Shown here: positions 184-64,000 of the stretch, piece after piece | Numbering within the stretch: position 1 is the first letter of the stretch | Layout of the letters: each line of letters opens with the position of its first letter | Origin: Felis catus | Taxonomy: Eukaryota | NCBI RefSeq assembly: GCF_018350175.1 | Contig: NC_058368.1 | Location: forward strand, 103,418,001 to 103,482,000 | DNA: 64,000 bases | Direction of reading: 5' to 3' | The notes under the pieces: model-generated | The model's input: only the letters and a program-made list of their open reading frames with translations | What the model was told of the DNA's origin: nothing | Databases searched by the model: none | Translations under genes and position numbers: made by a program

Positions 184-1021
184 CTTATTTACTTACTCAT
201 ATACATTTATATCCAAATTAGTTACCATAGAGTGCAGTAATGATTTCAGGAGTGAAATCCAGTGATTCGTCCCCTGCAAATAACACCCAGTGCTCATCCC
301 AGCAAGTGCCCTCCTTAATGCCCATCAACCATTTAGCCCATTCCCCCACCCAGAGCCCCTCCAGCAACCCTGTTTGTTCTCTGTATTTAAGAGTCTCTTA
401 TGGTTTGTCCCCTTCCCTGTTTTTATATATATATTTTTGCTTCCCTTCCTTTATGTTCATCTGTTTTGTATCGTAAGTTCCTCATGAGTGACATTATATG
501 ATATTTGTCTTTCTCTAACTGACTAATTTGACTTAGCATAATACACTCCAGTTCCATCCACGTTGTTGCAAACAGCAAAATTTCACTCTTTTTGAAGGTT
601 GAGTAATACTCCATTGTGTGTGTGTGTGTATGTATATATATATATATATACATACACACACACCACATCTTCTTTATCCATTCATCAGTTGATGGACATT
701 TGGGCTCCTCCCATACTTTGGCTCTTGTTGGTAGTGCTGCTATAAAATATAAACATTGCGGTGCATGTGTCCCTTCGAAACAGCACACCTGTATCCTGTG
801 GATAAATGCCTAGTAGTGCAATTGCTGGGTCGTAGGGTAGTTCTATTTTTAGTTTTTTGAGGAAGGAACCTCCATACTGTTTTCCAGAGTGGCTACACCG
901 GGCTGCAATCCCACCAGCAATGAAAAAGGGTTCCTCTTTCTCCGCATCCTTGCCAACATCTTTTATTGTCTGAGTTGTTAATTTTTGCCATTCTGATAGG
1001 TGTGAGGTGGCATCTCAGAGT
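184..1021 (-). mobile_element. 5'-truncated carnivore LINE-1 (ORF2 3' end plus 3'UTR)
   Basis: The minus-strand ORF contains L1 ORF2 C-terminal motifs (PKCPSTDEWIKKMW, MEYYS, FATTWMELE). A 16-bp TSD GAACCCCAAAACTTTA lies at 168-183 and 1022-1037. There is an internal (TG)/(TA)/(CA) microsatellite at about 615-662. Confidence 0.93.
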
Positions 1022-1039
1022 GAACCCCAAAACTTTAGA

Positions 1040-15800: not shown

Positions 15801-16847
15801 GGCTGCAGGTGTGTTTTTTCCCTTCAGTTGAAAAAAGCTTTCACCATCAGCCCACAAAAACATTCTTACTGGTTTAAATAACTGAAGGTTAATTTTGCAC
15901 TAAAGTGCCACTTACTCCGTAGTCTTTGTCTAAATTCTACAGCCAAGAGCACTCTGTTTCAGTATGCTTACTAACCTGGATCTGACCTTCAGTGTATTTG
16001 GTAATTACTCCTCAGGTTCATGGTCTGGGATTACTTATATCTCCTAACTTCACTGACAGTGGAGTCCAAGTTTCTGATTTGTGTTCACCTTGCTGTTTTT
16101 GGATAATGTTTAAGTTAGGAAATCATTCTAAAATCTATTACTTCATATATTTTAAACTATGTTTTAATAAGAAATGTATAAAGCACATTAGTATTATAAA
16201 AATAACATAGTTTGTTTATTTTGGAAGTATTAATGTAGACTTATAAAGATTTTAGAGATAAAAAAAGCTAATTGGCATTTCAAAAAAAATTTGATGATAG
16301 TATGATACACTATCACACTAATAAATACAATATAAATAGTCCTGACAGCTAATTTTGTCATATCATTCACTCCAATATGTAGTCTTAAGTAGATACATTT
16401 ATCATCCTATCAGAAAATTAACATAGGAAGGGTATGGTTGTCTTCACCCTCAACACAACCTAAAGAGAAGATAAATAAAAATTATACAGTACTATTTAAA
16501 GAATGTATAAAATTTTAGACATAAAGCTTTACTCTAGAAAGCAATTAAGAATTTTATACCTAAAATATTTACATTCTAGAAAACAACTGAGAATTTAACC
16601 ACGATCTTTATCAAATATGAGTTTGTTTTGCCATTCCTTATTTGGGGAAAGTGGGGTTAAACCCATGGGTTTTCTGGCCTGGTCAGAGAATGCACAACAA
16701 TAGACATTAGCTTTTAGAATTACATCTTTTTCTACTTCTACTTCAGCCTCAGCTAAAATATCAAACCAAACACATACTCCTGTGAGCTCCAGGAAATTCA
16801 TTATCACACATACTTTAATCATCTCAGTACATAAAAGAATGCTTTTA

Positions 16848-18525
16848 AAATTTGTATGAAACCACAAAAGACCCTGAATAACCAAAGCAATCTTGAAAAA
16901 AAAGAAAAAAGCTAGAGGCAACATGCTCCCTGATTTCAAACTATATTACAAAGGTATAGGAATCAAAATAGTATGGTATTGGCATGAAAACGGACACATA
17001 GATCAATGAATCAGAACAGAGAGCCCAGAAATAAACCCACATATATAGGGTCAATTACTTTATAACAAAAAAAGCTAAGAATATATAATGGAAAAAGATA
17101 GTCTCTTAAAAAAGGATGTTAAGAAAACTGGACAACCACTTGCAAAAGAAACGGGACCACTATCCTACACCATATACAAAACTTAACTCAAAATGGATTA
17201 AAGATGTAAAGGTAATACCTGAACCCATAACATTCCTAGAAGAAAACATAGACAGTAATCTCCTTAACATGAGTCTTGGCAATAATTTTTTTGAGCTGAC
17301 TCCAAAAACAAAGACAAAAAAAATGCAAAAATTAGTAAGTAGGACTCTATCAAACTAAAAAGCTTCTGCACAGCAAAAGAAATCATCAACAAAACGAAAA
17401 GGCAATCTACTGAATGGGAGAAAATATTTGCAAAACATACATCTAATTAGGAATTTACATCAAAAATACATAAAGAACTCATAAAACTCAATAGCAAACA
17501 AGTAATCTGATTTAAAAATGGGCAATCTTACTAGATATTTTTTTCAAAGAAGAATACAGATGGCCAACAGATATATGACAAGACGCTCGACATCGCTAAT
17601 CATGAGACAAATACAAATCAAAACCACAATGAAATATCATCTTACAATTGTTAGAATGGCTATAATCAAAACTATAAGAAATAACAAATGTTGGTGAGGA
17701 TGTGAAGAAAAATCCTCATGCACTGTTGGTGGGGATGTAAAATGGTACAACCACTATGGAAAAAAGTATGGAGGTTCCTCAAAAAGTTAAAAATAAAACT
17801 ACCTTATGATCCAGTAATTCCACTTCTGGTTAGAAAATAAAATCTACCTTACTTGAAAATATATATGTACCCCATGTTCACTGCAGCACTATTGATAATA
17901 GCCATGACACTGGAACAAACTAAGGGTTGGTCCATCAATAGATGAATGGATAAAAAAAGTGTAGTACATGTAAATAATGGGATATTATTCACCCATTAAA
18001 ATAGAATGCAATCTTGCCATGTGCAACAATGTGAATGGACTTTGAAGACATTATGCTTACTGAAAGTCAGAAAGAGAAGGATAAATACCATGTGATCTCA
18101 CTTATATGGGGAATCTAAGAGAAAACAAAACAAAACAAGCAAAGAAAACAAAACAACCCAAACTCATAAATACAGAGAACAGATAGTGGTTGCCAGAAGT
18201 GGGGATAGCATGGTGGGTGAAATGAGTGAAGGGGTCAAAAGGTACAAAATTAGTTATGAGTTATGAAATGAATAAGTTATGGAATGGAATGTGCACCACA
18301 GTGACTATAGTCGATAATAGTATATTACATAATTAAATGTCACTAAGAGAATAAATCCTAAAAATTCTCATGACAAGAAGAAAAATATTATAATATAAAT
18401 ACGTATGGTGGCAGATGTTAAGTAGACTTACTGTGGTGATCATATCAATATACATACAAGTATCAAATCATTATGTTGTATACCTGAAACTAATGTAATC
18501 TTATAGATCGACTATACCTCAATAA
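16848..18525 (+). mobile_element. 5'-truncated L1 (L1MA9/L1_Carn-like 3' end)
   Basis: ORF2 3' sequence (TPYTKLNSKWIKD) and a 3'UTR ending TATACCTCAATAAAAA. TSD AAAAGAATGCTTTTA (16833-16847) versus AAAATAATACTTTTA (18526-18540), 13 of 15 identical. Confidence 0.92.
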
Positions 18526-29227: not shown

Positions 29228-30968
29228 GTCTCTTCCACTTTTAAAGGCTACTCACATTCTGTGGCTCCTGGTACCATCACTCATATCTCTGCTTCAGTTT
29301 TCACATCATCTTCTCTACTGTAGTCAAATCGCCCTTTGTCTCCCCCTTATAAGGATAGTTGGATCAACTCATTATAGCATCAACTCAAGAACAAAATCAT
29401 CTAAAATATGTAACGATGGTCAGCTCAAAAGTCCCAGATCTCACCATCTAAATCAAGTATGGTTAAGACTCAAGCTATGACAAATTCCTGGCCAAATTCC
29501 TCCCAATCTGTGGACTTTTGTAAACAGATGACAAATTACCTGGTTCCCAAACACAATGTTTGGTAGGCATAGAATAACAGTTATAGACAATTGCATTCTA
29601 AGACAGAGAAAACAGAAGAAATAAAGGAATCAATGTTCCCAACCAATTTCAGACTTCGGATTGGAAGAACAAATATTGCTAAAATGTCTATACTATCTAA
29701 AGCAATCTACAGATTTAATGCAATAGCTATCAAGATACAACAGCATTTTTCACAGAACTAGAACAAATAATTCCAAAATTTGTATGGAACTACAGAAGAC
29801 CTCAAATAGGGGGTCTTGAAAACAAACTTGAAAAAGAAAAACAAAGCTAGAGGTATCACAATTCCAGATTTCAAGTTATACAACAAAGCTATATTAATCA
29901 AAACAGTATGGTACAGGCATTAAACAAAGACACATAGATCAATGGAAAAGTATAGAAAACACAAAAACAAACTCACAATTACCTGGTCAATCTTCAGCAA
30001 AAGAGGCAAGAATATGTAATGGGAAAACATACTCTTCAACAAATGGTGTTGGAAAAATCATCTACATGAAAAAGAATGAAACTGGATCACTTTTTCACAC
30101 CCTACACAAAAATAAACTCAAAATGGATTAAAGACTAAATGTGAGACCTGAAACCAAAGACCCTAGAAGACAGCACAGGCAGTAATTTCTCTGACATCAG
30201 CCATAGCAACACATTTCTAGCTATGTCACCTGAGGCAAAGGAAATAAAAGCAAAAATGCACTATTGGGACTACATTAAAATAAAAAGCTTTTGCACAGCA
30301 AGGGAAACAATCAACAAAACTAAAAGACAACCTACTGAATAGAAGATATTTGCAAATTATATATCCAATAAAGGGTTACTATCCAAAATACATAAAGAAC
30401 TTATACAGCTCAACACCCAAAAAACAAATAATTCAATTAAAAAACAGACAAAAGACATAAGCACACATTTCTGCAAAGAAAGACACAGATGACCAACAGA
30501 CACATGAAAAGATGCTCAACATCACTCCTTATCAGGGAAATGCAAATCCCAGCCACAATGAGATATCCCCTCACATCTGTCAGATTGGCTAACTCTAAAA
30601 CATAAGAAGCAATAAGCATTGGCAATGATGTGGAGAAAAAGGAAACTTTTTTAGCACTCTTGGTGGGAAAGTAAACTGGTACAGCCATTCTGGGAAACGG
30701 TGGAGGTGCCTCAAAAATTAAATACAGAACTATCCTTGAATCAGTAATCACACTACTGTGTATACACAAAAAATATATATATAATAAAAACACTAATTGA
30801 AAGGGATCTATGCCCTCTTAGGTTTACTTCAGCATTATTTAAAATAACCAAATTATGGAAGCAGCCCAAGTATCCATCAGTAGATAAATGAATAAAAACG
30901 AGGTGGTATATGTATACAGTGGAAAATTATTCTGCCATGAAAAAGAATGAAATCTTGAAAGAGGAGAG

Positions 30969-30979
30969 AAGATGGCGGC
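30969..30979 (+). promoter_or_regulatory. YY1 motif at the L1 5' end
   Basis: AAGATGGCGGC about 10 nt into the element, the position known for the L1 YY1 site. Confidence 0.7.
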
Positions 30980-31455
30980 ATAGGAGGACTCTGGGCTCAC
31001 CGCGTTCTGCGGATCACTTAGATTCCACCCACACCTGCCTAAATAACCCAGAAAACCACCAGAAGACTAGCAGAATGGATTCTCCGGAGACAAGCGTAGA
31101 CGAGAGGCCCATGGAAGATGGGCCCCTCCCGAAGCGGATCTCCGAAGGAAAAGCGAGCTGAGCCTGCCCCTCCTGCCCCTGTGCACCTTGCTGATCCACC
31201 CCAGCTAATACGCCAGATCCCCAGCACCAAAAGCCTGGCAGGGTGCAAGTAGCCCAGATGGGCCATGCCACCCCACAGTGAATCCCGCCCCTAGAAGAGG
31301 AGAAGAGAAGGTACACACCAGTCTGACTGTGGCCCCAACGGTGGGCTGGGGGCAGACATCGGGTCTGAATGCAGCCCCTCTTACCAACGCAAGTTATTCA
31401 AGACAGCACAGGGGAAGTGCCCCGCAGTTCCGCACCACTCCAAGGACTATCCAAA

Positions 31456-32346
31456 ATGACTAAACGGAAGAATTCCCCTCAGAAAAACCTCCAGGAAATA
31501 ACGTCAGCTAACGAACTGATCAAAAACGATTTAAACAATATAACAGAAAGTGAATTTAGAATAATGGTCATAAAATTAATCGCTGGGCTTGAAAACAGTA
31601 TAAAAGACAGCAGAGAATCTATCGCTACAGAGATCAAGGGACTAAGGAACAGCCAGGAGGAGCTAAAAAATGCTATTAATGAGCTGCAAAATAAAATGGA
31701 GATGACCACAGCTCGGATTGAAGAGGCAGAGGAGAGAATAGGTGAACTAGAAGATAAAATTATGGAAAAAGAAGAAGCTGAGAAAAAGAGAGATAAAAAA
31801 AATCCAGGAGTATGAGGGGAGAATTAGAGAACTAAGTAATGCGATAAAACGCAATAATATATGCATATTGGGATTCCAGAGGAGGAAGAGAGAGAGAAAG
31901 GTGCTGAAGGTGTACTTGAAGAAATAATAGCTGAGAATTTCCCTGATCTGGGGAAGGAAAAAGGCATTGAAATCCAAAAGGCACAGAGAACTCCCTTCAA
32001 ACCTAACTTGAATCGATCTTCTGCATGACATATCATAGTGAAACTGGCAAAATACAAGGATAAAGAGAAAATTCTGAAAGCAGCTATGGATAAACGTGCT
32101 GTAACATATAAAGGGAGACTGATAAGACTAGTGAAGGACCTCTCTACTGAAACTTGGCAGGCCAGAATGGAATGGCAGGAAATCTTCAATGTGATGAACA
32201 GAAAAAATATGCAGCCTAGAATCCTCTATCCAGCAAATCTGTCATTTAGAATAGAAGGAGAGACAAGGGTCTTCCCAAACAAACAAAAACTGAAGGAATT
32301 CATCACTAAACCAACCCTACAAGAGATCCTAAAGGGGATCCTGTGA
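31456..32346 (+). pseudogene. L1 ORF1p (RNA-binding chaperone), disrupted
   Basis: MTKRKNSPQKNLQE...coiled coil...QPRILYPANLSF...LQEILKGIL*. Frameshift in the A-run near 31800, a compensating shift near 31865, and a TGA near 32026. Confidence 0.93.
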
Positions 32347-32396
32347 GACCAAGTACCAGAGACATCACTACAAGGATGAAACCTACAGACATCACA

Positions 32397-35300
32397 ATGA
32401 CTCTGAACCCATATCTTTCTATAATAACACTGAATGTAAATGGACTAAATGTGCCAACCAAAAGACATAGGGTATCAGAATGGATAAAAAAACAAGACCC
32501 ATCTATTTGCTGTCTACAAGAGACTCATTTTAGACCTGAAGACACTCTCAGATTGAAAGTGAGGGGATGGAGAACTATTTATCATGCTACTGGAAGTCAA
32601 ATGAAAGCTGGAGTAGCCATACTTATATCAGACAAACTGGAGTTTAAATTAAAGGCTGTAACAAGAGATGAAGAAGGGCATTATATAATAATTGCAGGGT
32701 CTATCCATCAAGAATAACTAACAGTTATAAATGTCTATGCACCGAATACGGAAGCCCCCAAATATATATAAAACAATTACTCACAAACATAAGCAACCTT
32801 ATTGACAAGAATGTGGTAATTGCAGGGGACTTTAATACCCCACTTACAACAATGGATAGATCATCTAGACACATGGTCAATAAAGAAACAAGGGCCCTGA
32901 ATGATACATTGGATCAGATGGACTTGACAGATATATTTAGAACTCTGCATCCCAAAGCAACAGAATATACTTTCTTCTCCAGTGCACGTGGAACATTCTC
33001 CAAGATAGATCACATACTGGGTCACAAAACAGCCCTTCATAATACACAAGAATTGAGATCAAACCATGCATACTTTCGGACCACAATGCTATGAAGCCTG
33101 ATATCAACCACAGGAAAAAGTCTGGAAAACCTCCAAAAGCATGGAGGTTAAAGAATACCCTACTAAAGAATGAATGGGTCAACGAGGCAATTAGAGAAGA
33201 AATTAAAAAATATATGGAAACAAATGAAAATGAAAATACAACAATCCAAACTCTTTGGGATGCAGGGAAGGCAGTCCTGAGAGGAAAATACATTGCAATC
33301 CAGGCCTATCTCAAGAAACAAGAAAAATCCCAAATATAAAATCTAATAGCACACCTAAAGGAACTAGAAGCAGAACAGCAAAGACAGCCTAAACCCAGCA
33401 GAAGAAGAGAAATAATAAAGATCAGAGCAGAAATAAACAATATAGAATCTAAAAAAACCTGTAGAGCAGATCAATGAAACCAAGAGCTGGTTTTTTGAAA
33501 AAATAAACAAAATTGATAAACATCTAGCCAGGCTTCTCAAAAAGAAAAGGGAGAGGACCCAAATAGATAAAATCATGAATGAAACTGGAATTATTACAAC
33601 AAATCCCTCAGAAATACAAGCAATTATCAGGGAATACTATGAAAAATTATAGTATTTTCAAACTGAACAACCTGGAAGAAATGGACAAATTCCTAAACAC
33701 CCACACACTCCCAAAACTCAAACAGGAATAAATAGAAAGCTTGAACAGACCCATAACTAGTGAAGAAATTGAATCAGTTATCAAAAATCTCCCAACAAAT
33801 AAGAGTCCAGTACCAGATGGCTTCCCTGGGGAATTCTACCAGATGTTTAAAGCAGAGATAATACCTATCCTTCTCCAGCTGTTCCAAAAAATACAAAGGG
33901 AAGGAAAACTTCCAGATTCATTCTATGAAGCCAGTATTACTTTGATTCCTAAACCAGACAGAGACCCAGTAAAAAAAGAGAACTACAGGCCAATATCCCT
34001 GATGAATATGGATGCAAAAATTCTCAATAAGATACTAGCAAATCGAATTCAACAGCTTATAAAAAGAATTATTCACCATGATCAAGTGGGATTCATTCCT
34101 GTGATGCAGGGCTGGTTCAACATTCACAAATCAATCAACGTGATACATCACATTAATAAAAGAAAGGGTAAGAACCATAAGATCCTGTCAATCGATGCAG
34201 AAAAAGCATTTGACAAAATTCAGCATCCTTTCTTAATAAAAAGCCTCGAGAAAGTCGGGATAGAAGGAACATACTTAAACATCATAAAAGCCATTTATGA
34301 AAAGCCCACAGCTAATATCATCCTCAATGGGGAAAAACTGAGAGCTTTCTCCCTGAGATCAAGAACACGACAGGGATGTCCACTCTCACCGCTGTTGTTT
34401 AACGTAGTGTTGGAAGTTCTAGCATCAGCAGTCAGACAACAAAAGGAAATCAAAGGCATCAAAATTGGCAAAGATGAAGTCAAGCTTTGACTTTTTGCAG
34501 ATGACATGATATTATACATGGAAAATCCGACAGACTCCACCAAAAGTCTGCTAGAACTGATACAGGAATTCAGCAAAGTTGCAGGATACAAAATCAACGT
34601 ACAGAAATCAGTTGCATTCTTATACGCTAATAATGAAGCAACAGAAAGACAAATAAAGAAACTGATCCCATTCACAATTGCACCAAGAAGCATAAAATAC
34701 CTAGGAATAAATCTAACCAAAGATGTACAAGATCTGTATGCTGAAAACTATAGAAAGCTTATGAAGGAAATTGAAGAAGATATAAAGAAATGGAAAAACA
34801 TTCCGTGCTCATGGGTTGGAAGAATAAATATTGTTAAAATGTCAATACTACCCAAAGCTATCTACACATTCAATGCAATCCCAATCAAAATTGCACCAGC
34901 ATTCTTCTCGAAGCTAGAACAAGCAATCCTAAAATTCATATGGAACCACAAAAGGCCCCAAATAGCCAAAGTAATTTTGAAGAAGGAGACCAAAGCAGGA
35001 GGCATCACAATCCCAAACTTTAGCCTCTACTACAAAGCTGTAATCATCAAGACAGCATGGTATTGGCACAAAAACAGACACATAGACCAAAGGAATAGAA
35101 TAGAAACCCCAGAACTAGACCCACAAATGTATGGCCAACTCATCTTTGACAAAGCAGGAAAGAACATCTAATGGAAAAAAGACAGTCTCTTTAACAAATG
35201 GTGCTGGGAGAACTGGACAGCAACATGCAGAAGGTTGAAACTAGACCACTTTCTCACACCATTCACAAAAATAAACTCAAAATGGATAAAGGACCTGAAT

Positions 35301-36218
35301 GTGAGACAGGAAACCATCAAAACCCTAGAGGAGAAAGCAGGAAAAGACCTCTCTGACCTCAGCCGCAGCAATTTCTTACTTGACACATCCCAAAGGCAAG
35401 GGAATTAAAAGCAAAAATGAACTATTGGGACCTCATGAAGATAAAAAGCTTCTGCACAGCAAAGGAAACAATCAACAAAACTAAAAGGCAACTGACAGAA
35501 TGGGAAGAGATATTTGCAAATGACATAATGGACAAAGGGCTAGTATCCAAAATCTATAAAGAGCTCACCAAACTCCACACCCGAAAAACAAATAATCCAG
35601 TGAAGAAATGGGCAGAAAACATGAACAGACATTTCTCTAAAGAAGACATCTGGATGGCCAACAAGCACATGAAAAGATGCTCAATGTCGCTCCTCATCAG
35701 GGAAATACAATCAAAACCACACTCAGATATCACCTCACACCAGTCAGAGTGGCCAAAATGAACAAATCAGGAGACTATAGACACTGGAGAGGAGTGGAGA
35801 AACGGGAACCCTCTTGCACTGTTGGTGGGAATGCAAACTGGTGCAGCCTCTCTGGAAAACAGTGTGGAGGTTCCTCAAAAAATTAAAAATAGACCTACCC
35901 TATGACCCACCAATAGCAATGCTAGGAATTTACCCAAGGGATACAGGAGTACTGATGCATAGGGGCACTTGTACCCCAATGTTTATAGCAGCACTCTCAA
36001 CAATAGCCAAACTGTGAAAAAGCCTAAATGTCCATCAACTGATGAATGGATAAAGAATTTGTGGTTTATATACACAATGGAGTACTACGTGGCAGTGAGA
36101 AAGAATGAAATGGCCCTTTCTAGCAATGTGGATGGAACTGGAGAGTGTGATGCTAAGTGAAATAAGCCATACAGAGAAAGACAGATACCCTGTGTTTTCA
36201 TTCTTATGTGGATCGTGA
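32397..36218 (+). pseudogene. L1 ORF2p (APE endonuclease, reverse transcriptase, Cys-rich domain), disrupted
   Basis: EN motifs TLNVNGLN, CCLQETH, AGDFNTPL, SKIDHILG. RT motifs [19 protein letters not shown] and FADD (34494-34505). C-terminal [14 protein letters not shown]. Stops at 32715, 33337, 33650, 34488 and 35169, plus several frameshifts. Confidence 0.96.
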
Positions 36219-37483
36219 GAAACTTAACAGAAACTCATTGGGGAGGCGAAGGAAAAAAAAAAGAAAAAAAAAAGAGGTTAGAGTGGGAGAGAGCCAAAGC
36301 ATAAGAGACTCTTAAAAAATTGAGAACACACTGAGGGTTGATGGGGGATGGGAGGGAGAGGAGGGTAGGTGAAGGTTATTGAAGAGGGCACCTTTTGGGA
36401 TGAGCACTGGGTGCTGTATGGAAACTAATTTGACAATAAATTTCATATATTAAAAAAAAAGAATGAAATCTTGCCATTTGCAAAGACATGGATGGAGCTA
36501 GAGAGCATTACGTTAAGCAAAGTAAGTCAGAGGAAGACAATGACTTCACTCATCTGTGGAAGTGAAGAAACAAACAAACAAACAAATTAAAAAAACAAAA
36601 AAAGGAAAAGAAAAAGACAAAGAGACAAACCAAGAAACAGACTCTTAGCTATAGACAACAAACAGATGGTTACCAAAAGGGGAGGGCGGGTGGGGGGATG
36701 GGTCAAAGAGATGAAGGGGATTAAGAGCATACTTATCTTGATGAACACTGAGTAATATCTGGAACTATTAAATTACTGTATTGTATACCTGAAACTAATA
36801 CAACACTGTATGTTAACCACATGAATTAAAATTAAAAACTTAATAAAAATGAAAAATAAGTCTATAAATAAAATGAAGTGAACAACGACACCAACAAAAT
36901 CCATCTGGGCAAACTCCAATAGGTTTCAAAGCCCAAAAATAATGTATGGCTCAAGGCTTCCTCTGGGCCAAATGCTCTGCCCTTGCAGTCATCCTTCCCT
37001 TCTCCTAAATGGTAGTGCATATTCTCAGCTCAATAGTTTTATCAGCTCATTTTATGCCTGTAGAATTTTGGTAGTCTGAGAATTTTTCATTTCGTCCTAT
37101 CTGTGACCCTTTTAGTCCAGGCTAGCTGTATTTCTGCTGATGAAACAATCTCGACACCTTGGTGGGTCTCCTGTGTATACCTCAAGGATTCACTCTATTA
37201 GACAAGAGGCTTCTTCACAGATCTCTCCTGGATAATCTAATCTGTATTCCTGGCTTCTGCTGAGATGCTGAGGGGATCAATGAGTCATGCCCCTAATCCA
37301 TTTAGCACAAGCAAAACTTTGTCCAAACACACTCTTGGTCTCTCCAGAGCACAAATACCTGACAGTGAATCTTCTATTTTAGCACTTTTTGCAATCAGAT
37401 AGACCAGGAATTTCCTACATCATCAAATCATAGTTCTCTTTTGCATAACCATTTTTTCCTCAATTTCTCTCTTCCTCTCACAT

Positions 37484-60310: not shown

Positions 60311-61724
60311 AAAAGCAAATAACCTAGGAGCCAATACAAAGAGGATATGTTTGGCTCATTTAAAAAAAAAAAAAAACAGCACAAAACTGGAGGGGCCAAG
60401 ATGGTGGAATAGCATGGAAGTATTTTTTTGTGTCTCTCATCCCTCTTGCACACCTAGAAAAGTGACTTGAGGGTTAACACAACAATCTGCACAACCTGAA
60501 CCACAGAACTCAGCAGGTATGCATCACAGAGAGGTAAACTGGGGGAGAGAAAAGCCACAGAGGGCAGGGAGCTAATTTTGCTTGCAGAGAGAGGATGGAG
60601 ACAGCGGCGGGGGGGGGGGGGGGGGGGGATATGGGAAAGCACTTCCCCCCAAAGTAGCTGGAGAGAAAAGAGTACACAAGAGACTGAACAAAAAATAGAA
60701 AAAGAAGAAAGGAGGGGGCTTAAATTCCATTAAGACTCTATAAACAGGGGGAGTGCAGAGTCTGAGACTCTGCAGCTTGATGCCTGGAGGTGCTCTAGTG
60801 GGAAGGGCAAATCTCCAGGGGCAGAGAGTAAGGTCCGATGAGTCCTCTGGCCATACAGGGAGAGGGGGTTCCCCTGATGGCAGGACATTTGGTAGAGGCT
60901 GTATGGCCTGTCCACAGACAAAGGTTCCAGAGGACCCCAGAGAAAAACCACATTCGCTGGTGCTGGAACAAGGACATTAAGTGGGAAGCCTGGTGCCAGA
61001 TGTGTGTTGTGGTTTACCACAATCCCTGAAATGCTGTTATTACATGATCACATGAACTTTTTCTGGAGCAAGCTAGCACCCAGCTGCAATTTCTGGGCAT
61101 GGACAGCAGCACAATGTCGCAAATGTTCCTGGGGGAGGGCAAGCACCCGGCCATTGCTCGGTGAGACCCTCCCCCAGAGGGCCAGAGTCACAGTCCCTCA
61201 GAAGTGAGGAGTTGGGAAACACAGATACATGTGAGATAAAACTCAGGAGGAAAGTGCCTCCTGGCAGCCTAACAGCTTGATTACAGACAGTGTAAAAGCG
61301 GGGAGTGGACATAAACTGGAGACAAAGAAGGGGTGCTTGACTGCCAGTTGGGGAGAGCAGAGTTCTGATACTATAGACTGGGTAGCCAGGTGATGTCATT
61401 CACTCCTGCTGTGTACCCACACACACGCATACACATGCCACAACAATCACTCCAGTAAGCTACACAGAGCCATCCAGTGGAGAGTGGAGCCATTATACTG
61501 AGGCCCGCCCAACCAGGCCAACTGCACTCTTCAGGAAAACCACAAGTCTCTTCACCTGCTTAGTATACAGACTATAAAGTGCTTCATAGTTTGACTTGGG
61601 GAAACCAATGTAATTTCAATTGTATTTCAGTCTGTTCACTGGACCATTTATTCATTTTTTTCTTTTTCTTTTCTCATTCTTAAATACAGAAAGAGAAAAA
61701 AATTTATTTTCATTTTCCATTTTT

Positions 61725-61756
61725 TTATTTTTTAAATATCGCTATTTATCTTTTTT

Positions 61757-61789
<33 letters not shown>

Positions 61790-61975
61790 GAGAGAGAGTG
61801 TGATGGACAGAGAATGAGCGGGGAAGGGGCAAAGAGGGAGACACAGAATCCAAAGCAGCCTCCAGGCTCTGAGCTGTGAGCACAGAGCCCAATGTGGGGC
61901 TTGAACCCATAAACTGCATAATCATGACCTGAGCTGAAGTCAGACACTCAACTGACTGAGGCACCCAGGCGCCGC
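61725..61975 (-). mobile_element. Felid Can-SINE inserted in the L1 5'UTR
   Basis: TSD ATTTTCCATTTTT at 61712-61724 and 61977-61989. Confidence 0.93.
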
Positions 61976-62288
61976 TATTTTCCATTTTTATTAAAAAGAT
62001 TTTCTTTGTTTTCTACTGTATTTTTAATTTTTTAAATTTTTTAAATTTTATTTTACTTTCATGATTTCATTTTATTCTATTTTATTGTATTTATTTTTCA
62101 AATTTTGAAATGTTTTCCTTTTTTTCTTTTGTCCTTTTTTTCTTATCATCCCTTTTTTCCTCTATCAAGTTCCTTTCAACAACCAGACCAAAACATACCT
62201 AGGTTCTAGTATATTTATTCGATTATTTTGTGTTGTTTTTAATTGTTTAATTTTTTTTTACTTTATTAATTCCTTTTCTTCCTTCAAA

Positions 62289-63151
62289 ATGACAAAATGA
62301 AGGAATTCACCCCAAAAGAAAGAACAGGAAGAAATGACAGCCAGGGACTTAACAAAGATACAAGCAAGGAGTCTGAACCAGAATTTAGAATCACGATAAT
62401 AAGAATACTAGCTGGGGTTGAAAATAGATTAGAATCCCTTTCTGTGGAGATAAAAGAAGAAAAAGCTAGGCAGGATGAAATAAAAAATGCTATAACTGAG
62501 CTGTAATCTCCAATGGATGTCACAGCGGCAAGGATGGATGAAGCAGAGCAGCAAATCAGGGATACAGAGGACAAACTGAGGGAGAACAATGAAGCAGAAA
62601 AAAAAAGAGGGAGACTGAGGCAAAAGAGCATGATTTAAGAATTAAAGAGCTCAGTGACTCATTAAAAAAAGGAATTGTAAGGGTCCCAGAAGATGAAGAG
62701 AAAGAAAAGGGGTCAGAAGGTTTATGTGAGCAAATCATAGCAGAAAACTTTCCAAACCTGAGGAAAGACACAGACATCAAAACCCAGGAAGCATAGAGAA
62801 CTCCCAGTATATTCAACAAAAAATGACCATCAACAAGGCATATTATAGTCAAATTCACAAAATACTCAAGCAAAGAAAGAATCATGAAAGCAGCAAGGGG
62901 AAAAAAAGTCCTTAACCTACAAGGGAAAACAGATCAGGTGCACAGCGTATCTATCCACAGAAACTTGGCAGGCCAGACAAGAGTAGCAGGATATACTCAG
63001 TGTGCTGAATCAGAAAAATATGTAGTCAAGAATTCTTTATCCAACAAAGATGTCTTTTAAAATAGAGAGATAAAAAGTTTCCCAGACAAAAATCAAAGGA
63101 GTTCGTAACCACTAAACCAGCCCTGAAGAAATTTTAAGGGGGAGTCTCTGA
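62289..63151 (+). pseudogene. L1 ORF1p, disrupted
   Basis: ATG ACA AAA TGA AGG AAT TCA CCC CAA AAG (MTK*RNSPQK), SEPEFRITIIRILAGVE, and multiple stops and frameshifts. Confidence 0.88.
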
Positions 63152-63263
63152 TCTCTGAGAGGAGAAAAGATGGGGAAAAAACAAACCCAAAAAGACCGAA
63201 AGTAACAAAGATAAGAAAGGACCAGAGAACAGCACCAGAAACTCCAACTCTACAGGCAACATA

Positions 63264-64000
63264 ATGGCAATAAACTCGTATCTTCCACTACTCATTCTAA
63301 ACATCAGTGGACTAAATGCTCCAATCAAAAGACATAGGGTAACAGAATAGATAAGAAAAAAGGATACATCTACATGGTGTTTACAAGAGACCCACTTTAG
63401 ACCTAAAGACACCTTCAGATTGAAATTAAGGGGATGGAGAACCATCTATCATGCTAATGGTCAACAAAAGAAAGCCAGAGTAACCATACTTGTAGCAGAC
63501 AATCTAGACTTTAAAATAAAGACTGTATCAAGAGATGAAGAAGGGCATTATATCATAATTAAGGGGTCATCCACCAAGAATATCTAACTATTGTAAACAT
63601 TTAGACTCCAAACGTGAGAGCTCCTACATATATAAATCAATCCATCACAAACACAAAGAAATTCATTGAAAATAATACCAAAATAGTAGGGGACTTCAAC
63701 ACCCCACTTACAGCAATGGATGGGTTATCTAAATAGAAAGTCAACAAGGTAACAATGGCTTTGAATAACACACTGGACTGGATGGACTTAACATATATAT
63801 TCAGAACATTTCATCCCAAAGCAGCAGAATACACATTCTTTTCCAGTACAAATGGAACATTCTCCAGAATAGATCACATACTGGGACATAAATCAGTCCT
63901 CAACAAGGACAGAAGGATCAAGATCATTCCCTATATAGTTTCAGACACCAACACTATGAAACTTGACATCAACCACAAGAAAAAATGTGGAAAGATAACA
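63264..64000 (+). pseudogene. L1 ORF2p endonuclease domain, disrupted and partial
   Basis: LNISGLNAPIKRHRV, CLQETHFR, VGDFNTPL, SRIDHILG and SDH motifs with in-frame stops. Confidence 0.92.

Follow-up and report, generated by a model that had tools for sequence, protein, structure and literature searches.

Structure of the young L1 and its insertion site

The 64-kb stretch of DNA analysed here (hereafter the window) contains a young L1 on the + strand at 30958-36455, which lies between two 18-nt repeats and interrupts the 3' part of ORF2 in an older L1 of the same orientation. The features of the locus are given below in order of position, with L001 denoting the full-length reference to which the 5'UTR was compared.

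29658..30957, + strand: older L1, 3' part of ORF2 (76% to the young L1 ORF2), which resumes after 36473
30940..30957, + strand: left TSD, 18 nt, exact repeat, with a 5'-TTTT/C nick on the bottom strand
30958..31120, + strand: 5'UTR upstream of the putative splice donor (exon 1), 163 nt, 90% to L001 over 155 columns
31120..31121, + strand: junction from which a 416-nt GT..AG segment is absent, by alignment to L001, with the same joint in contigs
31121..31455, + strand: 5'UTR downstream of the putative acceptor (exon 2), 335 nt, 10.5% substitutions relative to L001
31456..32346, + strand: ORF1, broken (stop after 119 codons, frameshifts), with PF17490 on the C-terminal piece
32376..36218 (end placed by eye), + strand: ORF2 in many pieces, with endonuclease and reverse transcriptase (PF03372, PF00078, stop map)
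36219..36455, + strand: 3'UTR, read from the sequence, with AATAAA at 36435-36440 and a short A-tail remnant
36456..36473, + strand: right TSD, 18 nt, exact repeat

L001 was obtained as the one match, in a metagenome collection, to a pattern taken from beside the junction; it is the only full-length reference used here and, at ~10% divergence, probably belongs to another subfamily. The same junction-side pattern had 0 matches in viral contigs and 0 in prokaryote genomes. A pattern from exon 2 also had 0 matches in viral contigs, and its 13 matches in prokaryote genomes, which were 19-25 nt long and had no further similarity to L1, were rejected as chance.

The TSD is an exact 18-nt repeat (30940-30957 = 36456-36473) that occurs only these two times within the 64-kb window, and the bottom-strand nick, 5'-TTTT/C, is a variant of the L1 endonuclease consensus. 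When the insertion and one repeat are removed, the empty site aligns unbroken to the end of the young L1 ORF2 (479 nt, 62%). The hallmarks of TPRT present at the locus are the 18-bp TSD, the 5'-TTTT/C variant site, AATAAA, a short A remnant and this clean empty site. At the other end of the element, the AAGATGGCGG motif lies 11 nt into the L1 starting at 30958 and ~15 nt in L001, positions close enough for the 5' end of the window L1 to be taken as complete or nearly so, and as the ORF1 ATG is at 31456, the 5'UTR is 498 nt long. The first-pass annotation of this DNA had described an L1 with its 5' end present, an 18-bp TSD and a 5'UTR of about 500 nt, a description that was borne out in each part.

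Pfam L1 domains were found in four of the six ORF1/ORF2 pieces tested, three of them above the curated cut-off. The closest named relatives of the ORF1p are from Panthera leo (95%) and Felis catus (90%), and all six of the named matches, out of 14 ORF1p matches, are felid. The element is accordingly classed, by its ORF1p, endonuclease and RT domains and by its felid ORF1p relatives, as a felid LINE-1. Since the window copy diverges from L001 by 9-10.5%, part of which is a subfamily difference, the insertion is an old one.

A 416-nt segment with intron-like ends is absent from the 5'UTR

L001 carries an L1 with a ~928-nt 5'UTR, to which the window copy aligns in two blocks (89-90%). Between the blocks, at 31120/31121, 416 nt of the L001 5'UTR are absent from the window copy, which here reads CCATGGAAGATG directly followed by GGCCCCTCCCGAAG. 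In L001 the upstream edge of the missing segment reads GGAAGAGG before the break and GTAGGAAGG after it, and the downstream edge, 416 nt away, reads CTCCCTCCTGGTGCCGCAG before and GGCCCCTCC after. The segment opens as AGG/GTAGGA and closes as CTCCCTCCTGGTGCCGCAG/GG, with a pyrimidine-rich tract and CAG. The first-pass annotation had described a full-length UTR with roughly 0.4 kb more at this point, which L001 does carry (416 nt), and had anticipated a missing piece that starts with GT and ends in a pyrimidine tract plus CAG, as proved to be the case in L001; of the acceptor sequence that it gave, the terminal CAG is correct, whilst a few other letters differ from L001.

Reading the ends of the gap, the check that had been suggested, gave GT..AG together with the signals of an acceptor: in a simple motif scan the pyrimidine fraction is 0.68 at -25..-4, and a branch-point-like CTGAC lies 20 nt upstream (its A at -20 from the acceptor). 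The donor is the tied best of the 29 GT dinucleotides in the L001 UTR, with six of nine positions agreeing with the donor consensus. Random deletions of at least 60 nt could be read as GT..AG in 1481 of 343,206 cases (0.43%), and 62 of the 343,206 also carried stricter splice features. Two bases before the junction the window copy has a T that agrees with neither flank in L001, which leaves four equally good placements of the 416-nt gap at the window locus, only one of them GT..AG.

As the missing piece has the ends of an intron, the window L1 was most likely copied from a spliced RNA, and we consider it very probably a felid SpIRE (spliced integrated retrotransposed element). This was the reading proposed in the first-pass annotation, and both the gap ends and the recurrence of the junction support it.

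The same putative donor is used in other genomic copies

The interval L001:700-1760 was used as the target for four of 24 sequencing runs, the DNA contigs X1, X9 and X10 (organisms A, B and C) and the RNA reads X22. Among the joints listed (15 of 59, and 12 of 38 with letters between the two sides) there are 22 distinct forward skips, three further rows that run backwards being excluded from this number. The long UTR is the common form in the contigs of the three organisms. The donor (L001 1544; 1543/1546 where letters lie between) forms the break in six of the 22 listed skips, and these have four downstream ends.

The 416-nt joint could have been unique to the window, a point raised for checking at the outset, and was found instead in contigs of two organisms, where it has three sequence versions. 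The window's own T form is present in X1 (organism A) at depth 28, a second version, also in X1, keeps the G at -2 and differs by one more base (depth 44, with a short side of 41-42 letters), and a third is present in X9 (depth 52). In the two versions other than that of the window the placement is unambiguous within the GG overlap. From the two differences within 10 nt we infer that the two X1 versions are likelier to be two loci than two alleles. No joint of the 416 type was among those listed for X10.

The remaining downstream ends vary in how closely they match an acceptor. A 488-nt skip in two contigs of X9 is marked CT..AC, which is GT..AG in the L1 sense, and its acceptor has a pyrimidine fraction of 0.77, on a short side of only 23 letters; the row 1051-1544 is probably the same joint. 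The downstream end of a ~388-nt skip in X10 is off a CAG by at most one base (pyrimidine fraction 0.68). That of a ~371-nt skip in X1 falls where L001 has CGG, not CAG, and its use as an acceptor would presuppose that a CpG had changed in the source element. Exact GT..AG in L001 is found for two of the four downstream ends (416 and 488), and for none of the 16 other listed skips. Two of those 16 can be slid by 4 nt to give GC..AG or CT..AC, which we regard as chance.

Under a uniform null, three further ends would share the donor with a probability of 3e-5 (within 1 nt) to 4e-4 (within 3 nt), which rises to 0.003 to 0.03 when all 70 unlisted rows are counted as misses; these values are rough because real breakpoints are not uniform. 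Joints with <95% likeness or with short sides can stem from other repeats. As the donor is used with other acceptors elsewhere, the window copy probably belongs to a small family of similar events and is not a single accident.

Alternative explanations for the missing segment

Template switching or microhomology repair gives rise to L1 insertions with internal deletions, and these resemble the window copy in lacking an internal piece within one TSD-flanked insertion, yet repeated use of one GT donor with several AG ends would not be expected of their breakpoints. At this locus AGGG is present at both ends of the missing segment, offset by one base (in the splice register the shared bases are GG, 2 nt), and the region is G-rich, as would suit an RT jump during insertion or a later double-strand-break repair via AGGG; moreover, 16 of the 22 listed joints are not GT..AG, a sign that the region is rich in ordinary deletions or artefacts of alignment. 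The lengths, however, speak for splicing: GAAGA and the C run would be separated by three bases after an AGGG-mediated deletion, with 417 nt lost, and by four after splicing, with 416 nt lost, and the window has four (TGGG). In an ungapped fit over 41 nt, 416 gives 4 mismatches, 415 gives 7 and 417 gives 8. One inserted T would rescue the 417 reading, so that the window locus taken alone sets one substitution against one insertion, but the two other versions of the joint keep the 416 register too, and the upstream break is reused with the 488-nt end, whose ends share one base only. A hairpin-assisted jump found no support, the RNA fold of the skipped part and its flanks being no better than shuffles (z -0.42), with no unusual fold to join the ends. 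Overall we hold a microhomology-mediated deletion to be very unlikely.

The window copy might alternatively be a faithful descendant of a short parent, from a replicating short-5'UTR L1 subfamily or one amplified founder deletion. The three versions of the 416 joint could share one founder, and the window copy has indels absent from L001, e.g. 7 nt near L001 1021, which leaves the subfamily of the window copy without a full-length reference here. What makes this highly improbable is that in all three DNA runs the coverage of the skipped part is comparable to that of the kept parts (summed contig depth of about 2.5e4 to 1.6e6 per bin), whilst the donor joints have depths of 28-157, close to those of single-locus contigs (40-65 in X1), although contig depth does not measure copy number, and many copies with a common junction could collapse into an unlisted short contig. 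The other acceptors would require separate events regardless, and a piece of an X10 contig (record 12, 923-1137), whose 10 gap letters equal the total of the window's indels there, includes 10 nt of the skipped part, which weakly suggests that the window copy's own subfamily has the long form. The polarity could also be reversed, with the 416 nt an insertion in the L001 lineage and the short UTR ancestral; the comparison has no outgroup, and L1 5'UTRs gain and lose blocks, with which such an insertion is consistent. Against this, one upstream end combined with four downstream ends, of which one falls 72 nt into exon 2 of the window copy, describes nested deletions, and splice signals at both ends are not expected of an insertion, leaving a reversed polarity extremely improbable.

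Proposed origin and relation to known SpIREs

If the window L1 is a SpIRE, a full-length felid L1 would have been transcribed from its 5'UTR promoter, as L1 biology in general suggests, and the spliceosome would have joined a donor ~165 nt from the start of the RNA to an acceptor ~335 nt before ORF1, taking out ~0.42 kb. Since both ORFs are untouched by the splice, the RNA could have been reverse-transcribed in cis, and would have entered the older L1 by TPRT, the step in cis being proposed by analogy with the human elements in the available text of PMC5860796. Of the 43 CpGs in the L001 5'UTR, 24 lie within the removed part; the new copy would have started without these, and would then have undergone neutral decay, with broken ORFs. 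Much promoter activity was probably lost with the removed part. We consider unlikely the combined proposition that the felid L1 5'UTR acquired its one-donor, many-acceptor layout independently and that in felids the spliced form was not a dead end, a short-UTR lineage having kept enough promoter in its first 165 nt to re-amplify. If it were true, splicing would be a route of promoter remodelling in mammalian L1 families.

To our knowledge, the felid L1 5'UTR is unrelated to the primate one. Human L1 SpIREs, according to the available parts of Larson et al. 2018 (PMC5860796), have one donor, several acceptors, TPRT hallmarks and reduced promoter activity, and make up ~2% of full-length L1PA1-6 copies; retention of the human donor is explained there by its overlap with a RUNX3 site. 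As far as those parts describe them, the intra-5'UTR elements SpIRE97/622 and SpIRE97/790 are like the window copy in being otherwise full-length L1s with a TSD and an A tail, and in having a GT..AG deletion of ~0.4-0.5 kb in the 5'UTR with the ORFs untouched. In both felid and human a donor is common to several acceptors, and the spliced copies are a minority of the full-length ones, or apparently so in the felid. The felid case differs in its host, in its splice-site sequences and in the position of the donor (~nt 165-170 vs nt 98). An L1PA2 SpIRE linked to RAP1GDS1 and rescued by a host promoter, as presented in the available part of 10.1101/2025.02.02.635956, is likewise a 5'UTR-spliced L1; unlike it, the window copy shows no sign of a borrowed promoter or of offspring, and its ORFs are broken.

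The mechanism is a known one, and the lineage is apparently new for SpIREs. A literature search of listings and the openings of abstracts returned no felid or other non-primate SpIRE. In the available text of PMC5860796 the words cat, dog and carnivore do not occur, and mouse occurs in the references only; 'SpIRE' occurs 0 times in that of a canine review (PMC13756887), and a non-primate SpIRE is absent from the available parts of PMC5860798, 10.1101/2022.02.16.480772, PMC5932605 and PMC13558583. Occurrence of the same layout in a second lineage with a different 5'UTR would make it general to the internal promoters of L1, and the felid case would provide an independent test of the trade-off between donor and RUNX3 site. 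Felid SpIREs can also be mistaken, when cat genomes are surveyed, for full-length L1s with potential activity, and such copies would record ancient germline splicing of L1 RNA.

RNA reads and further features of felid L1 5'UTRs

No joint was present among the 217 X22 RNA reads, a test with little power as the reads came from ~1% of the run and the skipped part had a depth of 0-4 for most of its length. Loose ends of 4 and 11 X22 reads were seen at L001 797 and 829, at G runs just before ORF1; we take them to resemble a template-switch adaptor, and they most likely reflect an artefact of the library and not a start site.

Several other breaks were seen along L001. A 66-nt skip at L001 908-975, which is not GT..AG and has single-locus depth in all three DNA runs, lies close to a pair of direct repeats in the UTR's 3' portion and is probably one old shared deletion. 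Further features were seen at L001 1519/1520, 1252, 1099-1118 and 1021: inside the putative intron ~12 nt present in many copies are missing from L001, so that the typical intron would be nearer 428 nt, and other loose ends indicate several felid L1 subfamilies, which differ just after the acceptor.

Within the spliced UTR of the window copy, an ATG in frame with ORF1 stands 29 codons before it (31369-31455), and there are several short upstream ORFs, one of which, at 31118 (44 codons), is created across the junction by the T. These upstream ATGs and ORFs are probably products of decay.

Other L1 sequences in the window

None of the 44 long frames outside the L1s reached the Pfam cut-off as host gene context, and Rfam gave 0. 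The L1s at the locus are nested, the older one occupying 29658-30957 and 36474-about 36860, and because the insertion was into an older L1 of the same orientation, two homologous ORF2 ends now lie ~5.16 kb apart. Another older L1, at about 60387-64000 (+), has its 5' end and a ~1.9-kb 5'UTR, within which an antisense element at about 61740-61975 is presumably a SINE. The UTR of this older L1 (60300-62400) had no blastn match to the young felid UTR; as judged from these sequences, 5'UTR replacement is visible within one window (older versus young L1). Fragments of old L1 ORF2 are also present at 502-1022 (-) and 16846-17813 (+), sharing 72-83% with the young element.
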